Position numbers: made by a program | Shown: positions 1 to 6,000 of the stretch, piece by piece | Numbering within the stretch: the first letter of the stretch is position 1 | Layout of the letters: every line of letters starts with the position of its first letter | Origin: Candidatus Bathyarchaeota archaeon | GTDB taxonomy: Archaea > Thermoproteota > Bathyarchaeia > TCS64 | DNA length: 32,525 nucleotides | Direction of reading: 5' to 3' | Assembly (NCBI GenBank): GCA_043826455.1 | Contig: JBDRQD010000060.1 | Location: 1-32,525, forward strand

Positions 1-3000
1 ACCTATTGATATAAGGCATAAAGCTATTCGTACACCTATAGTCTATAGACCAGATATCTACTTTAAATATAAAAAAAGAAATGGGTATATAATTATTGAG
101 GTTTTACACAGTCAGAATAAAGATGCTAATTTAACTTGGGCTGATGCAATTCTATCGTATTTAGTAAAAGATGTAAAACGGGTATTTTTTGTAACAACCA
201 GTACTGAAGATAAACTTGAAGATATTGAAAATGGTGTATTAAATATCTTAAAAATATTATCAAGTATGAAAACACCTAATATAGATTTTCTTCCAAAAGA
301 TGTTAGAGTATATCCCATCTCCGACGAAAAGGAACTAAATGAAAAAAATATAATGGAACAAATTAATCAATATGCAAAAGAGGATAACTGGTAGTTTCCC
401 GTAGATTCATTTCCTCTTTTCTATTAGCTTCGCAGTAATGTGAGTTCGCTCAGAAGTACATCTTCTTAGTCTTGTTATTTCATTCGCTAGAGCATACGTA
501 ATTCTCAATCAGAGGAATTATCTATTACCTTATCCCTACTCAGCTCTTTGAAGCAGAGTACGTTTGTGAGCATACATTCAGATTTTTTATTGAGTAGAGT
601 CTTTATAATCCCCTTATTTATTGGTGGAAAGCTGAATGGTAGCGGGGAGGTAGATTTGAGCTACCGACATTGGGGTTATGAGCCCCATGGGTTAACCTGG
701 ATGCTCCCAGTGATAGCGCAGCATCAAAGAAATACCGGTTATATTAATCAAGTCTCAGCCTAGGATTTCTTGTACACCCTCTTCCGGGTATCCAGGTGAG
801 TCACGTATATTGTGCTCTCTTCCTTATCAACGGCGAATATGATCCTGTACCTGCCCACCCTGACCCTGAACGCCTTGTCTGCCCCTCTTATGACTGCGAC
901 ATCCATCTCCCGGAGAGAAACCGGGTACCCCTCAAGGCTCTCCATCGCCTCTATGAGGCTTGCCTCTGCCCCTCATCATCAAGGCCGTTCAGAAACCTGA
1001 GAACTCTACGATGCGCGACCACCCCGTACCTAGGCACCTTTGAGCGCCTCAAGGGTCACGTAGTTCCCTTTCCTCATTTCCTCCACCGAGGACCGGATCT
1101 CCTTCAGCTTCTCCTCGCTGAGTTTGACGCCGGGTAATCCCATGATTATTATCTCTTCGATCACCCTCTCGATGACGCTCAGTCTCTCGTTCACCTTTCT
1201 CACTTCATCGTAGATGGCTTCGAGGGTCGGCTGGTCAACCAACTTCTTCGTCAACTACAACCCTCCGGGGTTCATACTCCTTTCTTTGCAGTAAACTAAA
1301 TGAATGTAAAATATGGTTGAGGACCTGATTTACCTTCACAGATATGAGATACCGTGAAGGTCACCCACGCATGCACCCGGCATAACTACGTCACCGATAC
1401 TCACCGCCACTACCCCCCGTTACCATCCCCCGGCGGACAACCAGCACACCGCGGACACCGCCAACCACCGCCGCCACCAAAGAACCCCTGAAAAGCCTCC
1501 AAAACAAAAAACAACCCAGAAAACCGGGAACCGCGGCGGTGGCGGCGGGCCCCCCCTCCCCCCAAGCGCACACACAGAAACCTAACGTTAAAGAGAGTGT
1601 TTCAAACCACCGAACTTACCCATCTACTAAAGACACGCCCAGCAGCTACTCCTGGACGTCCACGGAGACAGGCCGCCCCCTCTCAAACACCACCCTCAGG
1701 CCCCTGAACGCCACCTCAAATATCCTGATCTTACCATACCTCTTCTCCCTGAGCAGACCCAGCCTCTGAAGCTTCACAAGGTGCCTCTCCACGCTCGTAT
1801 AGTTGAGGCCCGTGCGGCGACTCACCTCACTAATATTAAGCTCCCCGCTCTCCGACAGCACCTGCAGCACCCTGACCCTGCCCTTGCTGCCCAGTATCTC
1901 CTCGGCCCTGAGGTCCGGCTTACCTCTGCTCAATGATCTGCTTCACCTCCCTCTCCAGGCTCCTGGCCGGCACCCGCTCCAGGCTAATGAACTGGGTGCG
2001 GCCCATGCTGCTGGCCTGAAGCTTCACGTTGACAAAGTCCAGGCCGCTCAGGTTCTTCAGGTACTTCCAGTACTGGGTGTGGGCCCTGGGGGCCTCACCG
2101 TACTCCTCGCAGGCCAGCCGGTACGCCTCCTCTATCTCCCCGGTGGTGCCGTGGGTGACGCTGTGGGCCTGGAAGAACCTGGCCACCCCCAGGAGCACCA
2201 GCTGCTCGTGGAGGCTGAGCTGACGGACGGTCTCCTTCTTCAGTGTCTGGAAGACCCCCATGGCTGCCTCCCTCACGTGCTCAGGCATTATCTGGGGGGC
2301 CTGGCTGGTCTCGGCCATCTTCCCCGACCCGTGGAGGACGTCTATGGCGTACCTGGCGTCGCCGTGCTCCTTGACGGCCAGCTCGGATATGAAGTCCACT
2401 ATCTCGGGGGGAACCGCGTCCCTCCTGAAGGCCCGCTCCACCCTGTACGCCAGTATATCAGTTATCTGGCCCCTCTCGTACTCGGGCAGCCTTATGACGT
2501 TGCGCTGGAGGCTGCTGAGGGTGCTCCTGTCCAGCTTGGCGAAGACCTCAGGGTCCTTGCTGATGAGTATGAGGCTGAGGCGGCGGGCCTCCTCCGGCTC
2601 AGCCTCGTGGAACCTGGTGAGGTAGTACAGGGCGTCGCTTCCCTCGTTCTCTATGAGCACATCCACCTCGTCCAGGCAGAGTAGGACCTGGGAGTTGTCC
2701 TCCTCCATGATCTGCCTCATGATGTTCATGAGCTCGTTGGCCGCGTAGCCCCTCTCCGGGAACTCGGGGCGGAGCCGCTTGACGGCGCGGCTCAGGATCA
2801 TGAAGAGGCTACCCCGGAGCTCCCGGCAGTTCAGGTGGATGTGGGTGAGCTTCACCCGGCGCTGGGCCGCCTTCTCCCGGAGCCTCCTGCCGTAGTACTG
2901 GGCAAGGAGGGTCTTGCCGCTGCCCACGCCGCCCACGACGACGGCTTTCTGGCTCACCTCGTAGGGGGTCGAGACCATGTGGTCGAAGAGGGCCTCCAGC

Positions 3001-6000
3001 ATCCTGTACTGGTCCTCCCGGTGGAGGATGGCGTCGGGTATGTAGTTTATGTCGAGGATCGCCTCGTCGATGAAGATGTCTCGGTGCGCCATCTAACCCC
3101 GTTTCTGGGTCGGAGTTTGGGGATTTATGCATTTCGTAGGTTCTAACCAACTGTTAGTGGAGGGGTGAGTGAAAGTGGCTCAGGTGTGCTCCCCCAGCAC
3201 CCTGTACAGCTCATCCTGGCCCACGCAGTCCACAGACACCACTGAGCCATCCGCCCCAACCATGAAACGCTCCAAGCCCTTCGTCATCTCCCCGATCACC
3301 CGCGCCTCAACTCCTACGCTTTCCAGGGCTGACAGAGCCGCCTCCGCCCTCGACGAGTCCACGGTGATCAGCAGGGCCCCGCTGCTGAGAAGCCTGAGCG
3401 GGTCCACGGACAGGGCCCCGCATATGGCCAGGGTCTCCGGGGCCACCAGGAGGTCCTTCTCGAATATCTTGAAGCCTAGCCTAGACGCCTCGGACACCTC
3501 CAGAAGCCCATTGAGGACGCCGCCCTCAGTGGGCGTATGGATGCTGTGGACGCCCTTGATTTTGCTGACCGCCAGCGCCTCCGGGACCACGCTCACCTGT
3601 CTGAGCATATCCGCGGCCTTCTCCAGAGTCCCCTCATCCACGCTACCTGCCAGCCTGTCCCTGAGGTCCACAGCCAGTATCCCGGTGCCCTCGACGCCCG
3701 CACCCTTAGACAGAATGATCTTATCACCGGCCCGGGCCCCACCCGTAGTGATGTAGCTGCCCTTCTCAGCCTCCCCCAGCATGAACCCCGAGACGATGGG
3801 TCGGGTCAGCCCTGGGGCTACCTCGGTGTGACCCCCCATGACGCACACCCCCAGCTCGCAGCACGCCTCATGTTGCTCCCTCATGATGGTCTCCAGAAGG
3901 CTCTCATGCGCCCCCTCCGGGAGCAGAACGACGCTCATGTACCACCTGGGCTCAGCGCCCCTTACCGCCACGTCGTTGGCGTTGATGTGGACGGCCAGCC
4001 ACCCGATCCTCGACTCGGCCCCTGTAATGGGGTTGGCCTTGGCCACCAGAACCCTGTCCCCCATGTCCAGAACCGCCGAGTCCTCTCCAATGTGGGGCCC
4101 CTTGAGGACCCGGCCGCTGGGCACCCCCAGGCACGTGAATACAAGCCTCTTCAGCACGTCCTTGGGTACCTTACCTGTGGGTAGGCTGCCTGCCAATGTC
4201 ATCTCCACCATTGATTCGTCCTCGTGTGCTTATGGTTTTTCTGGCTACTTGACGCAGGTTACGCCCATGACCTGGGGGTGGTACCGGGTAGAGCTGAACC
4301 CGGCCTCCCGGAGCCGCCTAGACACGCCCCTCTGCAGATTGACGCCTCTGTACCTGGACCGGGGCTCACCAGTGTAGTGGAACATCTTGCTGCCGGGCGC
4401 CATGAGCCTGTGGAGCCTCCTGTAGTAGTCCAGCCCGTAGAGGTGTCCGGCGTGGTCGTGACGCGGCGGGTCGTGGATAACGTAGTCGAAGAAGGACTCG
4501 GGGAAAATGCTGGACACCGTGTACGTGTCCCCCATGACCTTGTGGATAGTCTCATCCGTGAAGAGGGGCGCGGACCACGGGTTCATCAGGGCTATCCTCA
4601 CAACCTGGGGCTCCAGCTCCACAGTCACCACCAGCTCTGCACCTCTCCGCGCCGACTCGATGGCCGTGTACCCCAGCCCCATACACGTGTCCAGGACCCT
4701 ACCCCCATCCAGCCCGAGAACTTCCAGCTTGGCCCTCGTGTCCTGGTCCGGAGTCGTCCCGCTGGTCCTGTGCATCCTGACGCCGTCTATCTCCAGGGTC
4801 GGGGCCCGACCCGTTGGAACAAGCTTATAAAAGTGTTTCCCCGCCACGGCCACCTGGAAGACGCCCCCGCTTTCGACGAAGTAGGCCGAGTTCTCCTTTT
4901 CAGATATTTTTTTCATAGCCTTTCTGCCGACAGTTTCGCCTTCGGGGAGAGTCCACCCTGTTTTCGTCGGATTTATCGTCGTTTCGGTCAAGCCCAGGTC
5001 GAGGCTAACCCTGGTTTTCCCCTCCAGAAGCGTTTTTGCCGTATCAGGCGTTATGATGGGCGGTACCCTGTGAAGCATGTCTCAGCGTTTTTCCATCGAT
5101 TGTGGCGTTTCTTAAGGTTTTACATCGCCAACGGGGCCTGTGGCCCATTTTTTATAGCGGGTGAAACGTTTTCCTGCTTCGAGTTTTATGTTCAGAAATA
5201 AATATTCTCAACCTGTAACAACAATATGGATTAAGGGTGTTAAGTTACAGGCTCATTCTCGCCGGGTTTTATACCTTTAAATTAAACCAGGTTGGTGCCT
5301 CTAGGAACCCTTATATTGGTTATTTCGCCGTTGCTTCCCGAATGCTATGGCTTCCGATGAGAAACAGAACGGCCTGAAGGGCATCGTGAAGGACGTCATC
5401 GACCAGATCCTTCCCCCCAGCGAGGTCGAGCTGGAAACCATCAAGGAGGAGATATGGGCGGACCTCTCCGCCCTGTACTACAAGTATGAGGACGAGGAGC
5501 AGAAGAAGGCCTTCAGGGAGGTCATGCTGGACATATGCGAGAAGCTGAGCCTGGGTAAGTGGGACGCCGTGTATGGGAAGCTTTACCGGGCTGAGCAGAA
5601 GGACAAGGCTTTCTAGTATCCTGCGCGCCGACTGTCTCCATTAAACATCTCTGTCACCTTTTCAATCTTGATCCGGCGACAAATGTGAATGTTTAAAAAG
5701 AAATGAACGTATACACCAAGCGGTAAGACTCGCTGGTTTCATTGCGTTTCCCACCAATTACACCACGAGTCTTACCACCATGATCACACCACCGGGCGAC
5801 CATCATTAACTGATTGTAACCCTCTACAAGGCCCCCAGAGAAGAGGGTTCTAGACGTAAACCTCGTTCCAGGGGGGAAGATAGAACTCGAAGTAGAGAAC
5901 CTTACCGTACTCGGTGTCGTCGTAGCCGGCCGCGGATACGTTCAGCATGCATGCCTTGGTCACCACCCTCAGCACGTCCTCCTGGCTCGCAGCCTTCGGC

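Follow-up and report, generated by a model that had tools for sequence, protein, structure and literature searches.

Among the Orc1/Cdc6 systems described in archaea, the closest to the one studied here is that of the Sulfolobales, whose Orc1-2 belongs to the same clade (PMC6061795, PMC9738581, PMC12490963). It is described as a non-initiator that binds a DNA-damage element (DDRE) similar to the box reported below (PMC6061795), and it carries a winged-helix signature, missing in initiators, that consists of an Arg pair, a His-Thr and the wing RGRT (PMC12490963). Unlike the order TCS64 of the Bathyarchaeia, our subject, the Sulfolobales retain the initiators Orc1-1, Orc1-3, and WhiP. Loss of Orc1-1 has already been published for Thermoproteales and Korarchaeota, where, as in TCS64, secondary loss leaves an Orc1-2-clade Cdc6 only (PMC3914693). 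Methanococcales and Methanopyrales also lack Orc1-1 naturally; they have, however, lost both core Cdc6/Orc1 paralogs and have a proposed divergent replacement (PMC3914693), whereas no replacement was found here. In Thermococcus kodakarensis and Haloferax volcanii with the origin or cdc6 deleted, replication is described as RadA-dependent with dispersed starts (PMC5663688, PMC11880632). Judged from search listings, the open-access literature yielded no report of Orc1-1 loss in the archaeal group considered here.

The window, the whole stretch of 32,525 nucleotides that was analyzed, comes from a TCS64 genome designated G000 and includes the following features, all on the minus strand.

1430..1580, minus strand: one of the 35-38 copies that a dispersed repeat (family A) has in this genome; G6AG7 core at 1550-1563
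1646..1933, minus strand: gene for a 95-aa winged-helix protein (wHTH, ArsR/IclR-like), overlapping the cdc6 stop
1920..3092, minus strand: orc1-2-type cdc6, 390 aa, identified by sequence, domain matches, tree, and motif alignment
3123..3137, minus strand: putative BRE-TATA-like element ACGAAATGCATAAAT, at a fixed spacing from the promoter box
3157..3178, minus strand: conserved DDRE-like box CCACTTTCACTCACCCCTCCAC (ANTTTC-N6-CYC) in the promoter, 85-96 nt ahead of the cdc6 start
3180..4211, minus strand: AIR-synthase-like gene (HypE/ThiL family), a mere neighbor that stops just short of the box

The cdc6 product matches TIGR02928 at 267 bits, has Cdc6 lid and winged-helix domains, and in a motif alignment shows intact ATPase motifs (Walker A K60, Walker B D141-E142, ISM G115). 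In an Orc1-2 initiator of the Pyrobaculum type, the lid domain would bear an MCM-recruitment surface. Homologs of the 95-aa winged-helix gene were found by tblastn behind Orc1-2 in other orders (L037-L040), and none was found behind Orc1-1 in L032-L036. Contigs from three RNA libraries hold pieces of cdc6 from this organism or its relatives, which is no proof of transcription or of the start.

The genome-wide survey's note had described this protein as the only Orc1/Cdc6 of its genome and as a member of the Orc1-2 rather than the Orc1-1 clade, and both statements are borne out. A search of the genome gave this one match, the next match of an unfiltered phmmer search over 27,545 six-frame ORFs reached only E 0.49, and a 72-sequence Cdc6 profile detected only weak matches elsewhere in the genome (totals no higher than 32 bits, with 17 bits for the best single domain). 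A quick IQ-TREE phylogeny of 72 rows, evaluated by SH-aLRT support only and leaving out locus L099, which is without a usable ORF, splits at support 100 into an Orc1-1 side of 22 rows and an Orc1-2 side of 50. The window protein lies apart from Sso Orc1-1 and A. pernix ORC1, groups with A. pernix ORC2, Sulfolobales Orc1-2, and Pyrobaculum Cdc6, and clusters at support 98 with the second paralog of other class members; the anchors are L061 (A. pernix ORC1, 2v1u), L067 (A. pernix ORC2, 1w5s), L052 (near Pyrobaculum Cdc6, 716 bits), and L033 (best to 2qby_A, 380 bits). The note's PDB scores were reproduced, with Pyrobaculum Cdc6 (1fnn) as best match at 158 bits and Sso Orc1-1 (2qby_A) at 141 bits. 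The Orc1-2 winged-helix signature is recognizable at R336/H338/T339 and G364/R365, reading PRAHTQ and MGRT as compared with PRKHTQ and RGRT in a Sulfolobaceae copy; one Arg is replaced in each pair, and the His-Thr (T339 here, T356 in Sulfolobales) and the other arginine of each pair are retained. An ORB array with an AT-rich element, by which an Orc1-1 initiator locus would be recognized, was not found adjoining the window cdc6.

Across the order, 76 of 79 genomes have an Orc1/Cdc6 match (one in 63, two or three in 13, none in 3), and an Orc1-2-clade gene is present in 75/79. For the short partial matches, which the tree leaves out, the bits per residue suggest that they, too, are Orc1-2. The main Orc1-2 was not found in G025, G027, G029, and G007, nor in genus g11, whose four genomes all have only a lower-scoring copy, two of them in a separate subclade; g11 and G025 carry another Cdc6.

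The claim that the order has lost Orc1-1 proved stronger than first proposed. An Orc1-1-type match at E<=1e-110 occurs in 1/79 order genomes (only G025), compared with 198/212 other genomes of the class that are at least 90% complete (hand count). In other orders, all four loci inspected share an ancestral layout in which PolD DP1 is convergent with orc1-1, followed by ORB-like boxes and then by a winged-helix gene. The DP1 locus of G000, located within a 273-kb contig, is without orc1-1, the boxes, and the winged-helix gene; the same junction of DP1 with Endo_dU recurs in G008, G007, G011, G071, and G025, and the locus is contiguous and has the same rearrangement in 6/6 genomes checked from three families. 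The origin-linked winged-helix gene is present in 0/39 order genomes and 106/122 others, and by hand count the ORB pattern matches 11 times in the 39 order genomes (12 for the reversed control) and 78 times in the 122 others (17 for the control). The sequences show that in the ancestor of the order orc1-1 was deleted at PolD DP1 along with its ORB array and the winged-helix gene linked to it, and that only Orc1-2-clade proteins were kept. The small winged-helix gene that disappeared along with Orc1-1 may encode an accessory factor of the origin.

Could the absence be an artifact of assembly or binning? Metagenome bins often lose origin regions, the order is without a closed genome, and in G025 an orc1-1 is indeed present, accompanied by ORB-like boxes and a remnant of the winged-helix gene. 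The survey had cited two single-contig genomes; the order's two single-contig genomes (G011 and G021) are not closed, because runs of N lie within these scaffolds (75 gaps in a sampled 1.62 Mb of G011 and 4 in 19 kb of G021), and we do not use them as proof of Orc1-1 absence. However, an artifact would have to spare the gene in nearly all comparable genomes of other orders while affecting a locus that is contiguous and rearranged alike in three families. The G025 copy lies on a 3.7-kb contig, apart from the DP1 locus of that genome, which itself bears the scar, and in the tree the copy falls outside the Orc1-1 group of the Bathyarchaeia (support 92); given this separate contig and branching, it is best read as a re-acquisition or a contaminant. 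We therefore regard an artifactual absence as extremely improbable.

The retained Orc1/Cdc6 looks like a damage-response regulator. The box before cdc6 is kept in 28 of 29 order loci, and the BRE-TATA-like element is kept across the aligned upstream regions. The box resembles the published Sulfolobales DDRE consensus (AATAGTTTCRGWDTACTCWS) in its ANTTTC core and in the CTC/CYC six bases on, and, as described for Sulfolobales Orc1-2, it stands in the gene's own promoter and before repair genes. In G000 the pattern has 13 matches versus 1 for a reversed control, and a matrix trained on other genomes scores above 17 bits at 18 sites, whereas 30 column-shuffled matrices average 2.5 such sites. The genes behind these boxes include orc1-2, radA2 (twice), an SMC-like gene, a tubulin/FtsZ-like gene, and an alkyl-guanine DNA-binding gene; lower-scoring boxes precede nreA, a RadA/B-like gene, and a DUF763 gene. 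Against the reading proposed below, MCM too is preceded by a weak box (14 bits), and RFC-S by a still weaker one. All 11 radA2 genes of family f1 have the box. Across 39 order genomes the pattern gives 254 matches versus 64 for the control, and the four genomes in which no excess was detected (G025, G027, G029, and G007) are all without the main Orc1-2. As in a DDRE regulon, the ANTTTC element occurs in the promoter of orc1-2 itself and, above chance, before repair and recombination genes. Based on these patterns, we consider it highly probable that the kept Orc1-2 controls the transcription of a DNA-damage regulon by binding single ANTTTC-N6-CYC boxes ~40 nt upstream of TATA boxes, as Sulfolobales Orc1-2 does. 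The predicted targets (second radA, nreA, SMC-like, tubulin-like) differ from the ups, ced, tfb3, and dpo2 genes named for Sulfolobales, and the distance from box to start codon is 66-96 nt here versus -23 to -55 for most of the Sulfolobales genes described. PMC6061795 raises the question of whether Orc1-2 controls damage genes beyond Sulfolobales; both the element and a candidate regulon are present in Bathyarchaeia.

The survey's note had taken the box in the gene's own promoter as a clue to non-canonical initiation. The box is better read as belonging to the promoters of a repair regulon; as an origin it was rejected, being single and promoter-proximal. A rival explanation is that the kept Orc1-2 performs both functions, regulating repair genes and initiating at several non-ORB origins as in Pyrobaculum, which is reported to have an Orc1-2-clade Cdc6 alone (PMC3914693) and four mapped origins, one adjoining cdc6 (PMC4009838). 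Given that this single Cdc6 adjoins a mapped origin, the clade is able to initiate (PMC4009838), and the near-universal presence of an Orc1-2-clade gene in the order and its intact ATPase motifs are in keeping with such a role. However, the Pyrobaculum calidifontis origin is described as carrying Orb-1 palindromes (PMC4009838), whereas only the promoter box lies upstream of cdc6 here: the region spans only ~90 nt, no AT-rich unwinding element was found in it, and no conserved palindrome was found upstream of cdc6 in G000 or G011. In G000 each box stands alone, oriented and promoter-proximal, and no two boxes above 13 bits lie within 400 bp of each other. The main Orc1-2 was, moreover, not found in genus g11 or G025, Sulfolobales Orc1-2 is described as non-initiating (PMC6061795, PMC5333045), and the traceable oriC1 deletion scar sets the order apart from Pyrobaculum as described. 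On balance, we judge a double role to be rather unlikely.

The second RadA had likewise been offered as a clue to non-canonical initiation. It is indeed present in 36/39 order genomes, and its gene stands behind the same ANTTTC-N6-CYC box as orc1-2, but it is not confined to the order: it also occurs in 48/162 non-order genomes, including the Orc1-1-keeping G126 and G092. As it is older than the loss, we rejected it as compensation for the loss of Orc1-1. It appears to be a repair paralog that may help replication and is not evidence for recombination-type initiation. Of the survey's reading, replication by a non-canonical initiator or by recombination, the order-wide loss therefore stands, extended to the whole origin unit, and the box and RadA clues do not; because of that loss, non-canonical initiation in the order is likely.

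This reading gains weight from the absence of long-range skew. In G126, which keeps Orc1-1, four-fold AT skew is negative in all 11 windows between 150 kb and 1.2 Mb, is positive in all 10 others, and changes sign at orc1-1. G000 showed no contig-scale excess (23 contigs, p 0.34-0.37) and an adjacent-window correlation of -0.08 (67 pairs); when a skew half as large as the control's was injected, the test picked it up at p 0.005, the control being a single genome of 38% GC compared with 58% for G000. The skew could likewise have been lost through rearrangement or a different mutation spectrum, and long replichores would also vanish with several Orc1-2-dependent origins. An excess at the 20-kb scale (p<=0.007) fits fixed local and random start sites equally.

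We propose that the Orc1-2 kept after the deletion of the oriC1 unit is a repair regulator. We further posit, tentatively and with a little less than even confidence, that, without Orc1-1, an ORB array, or WhiP, replication begins at many scattered sites and uses no dedicated Orc1 initiator. RadA-made D-loops or R-loops would prime the forks, and the single MCM would be loaded there, as in origin-deleted Haloferax and Thermococcus. The reported cases were made in the laboratory, in polyploid euryarchaea whose natural populations retain the genes, whereas here the loss is fixed in an uncultured TACK order. Archaeal origin-independent replication has so far meant such laboratory deletions, and a whole order, represented by 79 species-level genomes, has apparently lost its ancestral origin and initiator. 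The order is thus a natural test case of whether a prokaryotic chromosome can be maintained in the long term without a dedicated initiator.

Alternatively, Orc1-1 may have been replaced by an unrecognized initiator with its own origins, for instance a protein captured from a plasmid or virus, or an AAA+/winged-helix protein that has diverged strongly. Sulfolobus WhiP and the divergent Methanococcales initiator are described precedents (PMC5333045, PMC3914693, PMC4009838), and cassettes of DUF72, an Orc1-2-like gene, and radA2, some adjoining integrase-like genes, show Cdc6-like mobility within the order. In G000, however, no second Cdc6-like or WhiP-like protein was found, and no candidate gene was identified, no inventory of order-specific genes having been made; we consider such a replacement distinctly unlikely. 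WhiP was not found in G000 with a 120-sequence profile, and a 2-sequence model gave a full-length match in none of the 79 order genomes, although it likewise found nothing in five controls from outside Sulfolobales and Desulfurococcales, so that its reach to distant homologs is uncertain; the WhiP reference was found via shared synteny and named from Atlas and homolog names.

The remaining candidate start sites are the family A repeats. About 35-40 polar copies occur in G000, surrounded by a strand-asymmetric halo that is G+T-rich from -3 to +1.5 kb and opposite from +3 to +15 kb. Mitochondrial and ColE1 replication is primed by a G-run, which these repeats resemble. That the order is naturally origin-less and that this genus primes replication at the repeats as R-loop or D-loop sites, the halo being the footprint, is nevertheless a very doubtful proposal. 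RNase HII loss, which would have hinted at stabilized R-loops, was rejected, the gene being retained in 4/4 order genomes checked. An ARAGORN run at a relaxed threshold returned 849 calls, too many for a test of repeat-tRNA adjacency. The copy adjoining cdc6 is not kept in most relatives, being found among the other loci only at L018. G6AG6 repeats reach at least 12 copies in 8/17 genomes of genus g1 and at most 6 in the remaining 22 order genomes, although such repeats may be under-assembled in general; because they are patchy, the repeats would be at most one genus's solution. G6AG6 repeats also occur in the Orc1-1-keeping G131 (18) and G197 (10), and with such copy numbers an order-wide replacement origin is unsupported.

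The only Orc1/Cdc6 gene recovered by our searches of G000, the 2.95-Mb, 81-contig genome to which the window belongs, is that of the window itself, as the genome-wide survey's note had claimed; a winged-helix gene overlaps and follows it. The window is contig C60 of this genome. The order name used here is the one given in the note, and Bathyarchaeia as the class has indirect support: the Atlas assigns a protein of a class relative to clusters in which Bathyarchaeota predominate.

1920-3092, minus strand: Orc1/Cdc6 gene, 390 aa
1646-1933, minus strand: winged-helix gene, 95 aa

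In a 72-row Cdc6 tree (quick IQ-TREE, SH-aLRT support only, one locus left out), a split with support of 100 separates 22 rows, anchored through PDB searches by A. pernix ORC1 and a Bathyarchaeia copy that is closest to Sso Orc1-1, from 50 rows anchored likewise by A. pernix ORC2 and Pyrobaculum Cdc6. The window protein lies on this second, Orc1-2 side, grouped with the second paralogue of other Bathyarchaeia (support of 98), which upholds the clade membership given in the note, and a motif comparison shows that it retains the winged-helix His-Thr. Orc1-2-side copies that adjoin a second radA in several genomes of the order TCS64 fall in a third subclade (support of 99).

A TIGR02928 search matches 76 of the 79 order genomes, and G025 alone reaches E ≤ 1e-110, compared with 198 of 212 Bathyarchaeia genomes outside the order (completeness at least 90%; hand count). 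This contrast in Orc1-1-level matches bears out the proposed order-wide loss of Orc1-1, which we regard as almost certainly real. The single-contig order genomes, offered as extra proof, add nothing over the other bins because both are scaffolds with N gaps.

The PolD DP1 gene is convergent with orc1-1 in all four complete-looking genomes from other orders, and upstream of orc1-1 each has a stretch rich in A and T, boxes of ORB-like type and a winged-helix gene in divergent orientation.

Locus L043, 10692-11117, and orthologues: unnamed winged-helix gene of the Bathyarchaeia origin, 135-146 aa, oriented divergently to orc1-1

The DP1 locus of G000 lies in the interior of a 273-kb contig, and no orc1-1, ORB or winged-helix gene of this kind was found there; DP1 is turned relative to its neighbors and is convergent with an Endo_dU gene, a junction shared by G008, G007, G011, G071, and G025. 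That the absence of Orc1-1 is an artefact, as the N-gapped scaffolds might suggest, is highly improbable beside this contiguous locus. The loss takes in the origin as well: the origin-linked winged-helix gene occurs in 0 of 39 order genomes versus 106 of 122 others, and the ORB pattern is no more frequent than chance would give in the 39 (11 matches versus 12 in the reversed control) and enriched in the 122 (78 versus 17). This winged-helix gene, a relative of which adjoins a Nitrososphaeria-side orc1-1 (locus L072), is gone along with Orc1-1 and is a candidate accessory protein of the origin. Earlier cases of Orc1-1 loss (PMC3914693) and growth without cdc6 after gene deletion (PMC5663688) are on record. 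Within the literature searched, an order-wide scar combined with a regulator-type Orc1-2, without a recognised replacement, is apparently new.

The box CACTTTCACTCACCCCTCC is found 85-96 nt upstream of cdc6, at constant spacing ahead of a BRE-TATA-like element, in 28 of 29 order loci, these being the best-scoring from the TIGR02928 search and not all 79 genomes. It corresponds to the element that S. islandicus Orc1-2 binds, a protein which PMC6061795 describes as a non-initiator and global DNA-damage regulator; the winged-helix His-Thr governs this binding, according to PMC12490963. A matrix whose training set left out G000 and G011 yields 18 matches above 17 bits in G000 (shuffled matrices: mean 2.5, maximum 6), with no clustering found in the scan, and most top boxes stand 38-50 nt ahead of a TATA-like word, with an ORF 66-90 nt downstream. 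The genes behind them encode Orc1-2, SMC-like, tubulin/FtsZ-like, alkyl-guanine DNA-binding, and DUF3795 proteins and small ORFs; the box also precedes two second-radA copies, with Hef two genes after one of them, and lower-scoring boxes precede nreA, a RadA/B-like gene and DUF763. Intragenic matches are probably due to chance. In G011, of which 70% was sampled, the same small zinc-finger, RadA/B-like, and DUF763 genes follow the box, as does the housekeeping radA. Across 39 order genomes the pattern has 254 matches versus 64 in the control, and the pattern scan found no excess in the four order genomes without the main Orc1-2. Some non-order families are also enriched, and three further families, besides one Sulfolobaceae genome, have related boxes ahead of Orc1-2. 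We therefore consider it very likely that the retained Orc1-2 regulates a repair regulon. Two strongly boxed genes of G000 are candidates to arrest division and to handle the chromosome in response to damage.

C38:55371-56735: tubulin/FtsZ-family gene, CetZ-like C-terminus
C25:30248-32305: SMC-like gene

The RadA complement of G000 is one housekeeping RadA and two copies of a paralogue, 90% identical, a duplication that may be an effect of the bin's 7% contamination. The paralogue is present in 36 of 39 order genomes and also in 48 of 162 others (E ≤ 1e-90, hand count). Its gain therefore did not accompany the loss of Orc1-1, and it fails as the clue the note had taken it for. In family f1 the box lies upstream of this second radA at all 11 loci; among the loci examined in other families it scores above 8 at two (G126 and G189), and the G111 locus has a box with a weaker core. 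Six loci (L084, L085, L088, L089, L090, and L077) carry a cassette of the second radA and an Orc1-2-like gene of the separate subclade; L086 has such a gene, with no second radA seen in the stretch. A C6TC6-type run lies behind the cassette cdc6 gene; several genomes of family f11 have the same run just upstream of their second radA. DUF72 precedes the family f2 cassettes, some of which adjoin integrase-like genes.

G025 (L045, L104, L141), the sole order genome with Orc1-1, carries the orc1-1 unit, ORB-like boxes included, away from the ancestral locus on a contig of 3.7 kb, and its Orc1-1 groups with two non-Bathyarchaeia families (support of 92). Profile and pattern searches found no Orc1-2, second RadA or box enrichment in this genome. 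The contig's GC of 41% is near that of other G025 contigs; its origin may have been re-acquired, or the contig may be a contaminant.

To gauge how replication starts, we measured skew at four-fold sites, corrected for gene strand. The Orc1-1-bearing G126 has two clean replichores that switch at orc1-1 (21 of 21 windows; mean 0.097), which maps a single in silico origin for a Bathyarchaeon.

G126, C1, about 115 kb: origin at orc1-1, with the terminus near 1.2-1.3 Mb (four-fold AT skew, in silico)

No contig-scale skew was found in G000 (p 0.34-0.37), where power sufficed for half the G126 effect, although some excess exists at 20 kb. Judged against this single, lower-GC control, the test speaks against replication from just one or two long-lived origins; random starts and many fixed starts fit it alike. 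We tentatively favor initiation at dispersed sites, which would be primed by recombination or R-loops. Double duty of Orc1-2, the sole Orc1/Cdc6 of G000, as regulator and initiator seems rather doubtful: the box, which the note had read as a clue to initiation, matches a repair-regulon element and is unclustered and promoter-proximal. An unrecognised initiator is unlikely. WhiP (query taken from two crenarchaeal genomes on the basis of synteny and identified by Atlas and homologue names) was not found in G000, and the 79 order genomes gave only short helix-turn-helix matches of at most 25 bits, in 9; distant forms could be missed because five outside control genomes are also blank.

G000 also contains two families of G-run repeats: family A (G6-7AG7 core, 35-38 copies) and family B (G6AG5-7 core on an A+C-rich strand, 33 intergenic copies), with elements similar to family B in G011 and G021.

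About 1430-1580 of the window: family A copy
C15:19477 and C36:49260: family B examples

At four-fold sites between -3 and +1.5 kb the G-run strand of family A is strongly G+T-rich whichever the gene direction, with skews of +0.44 and +0.48 over the kilobase upstream; between +3 and +15 kb it is A+C-rich in 21 of the 27 copies that had data. Under the convention usual for bacteria, this polarity would suit both priming sites and converging forks. The folding of family A as RNA is no more stable than that of shuffled sequences (z -1.4). The repeats do not explain the order, because they reach high copy number only in part of genus g1 and in a few genomes that carry Orc1-1.

Elsewhere in the window, the sequence suggests a small antitoxin-toxin-like gene pair, of RelE type by eye (796-1260, minus strand), between the repeat and a tRNA-like match for which ARAGORN makes no call. 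The low-GC contig end next to that match (1-600) may be an integrated element.

649-707, minus strand: tRNA-Met as judged by eye, from a weak Rfam tRNA match (21.6 bits, under the gathering cutoff)
6221-14819: cluster of NiFe hydrogenase and heterodisulfide-reductase-like genes
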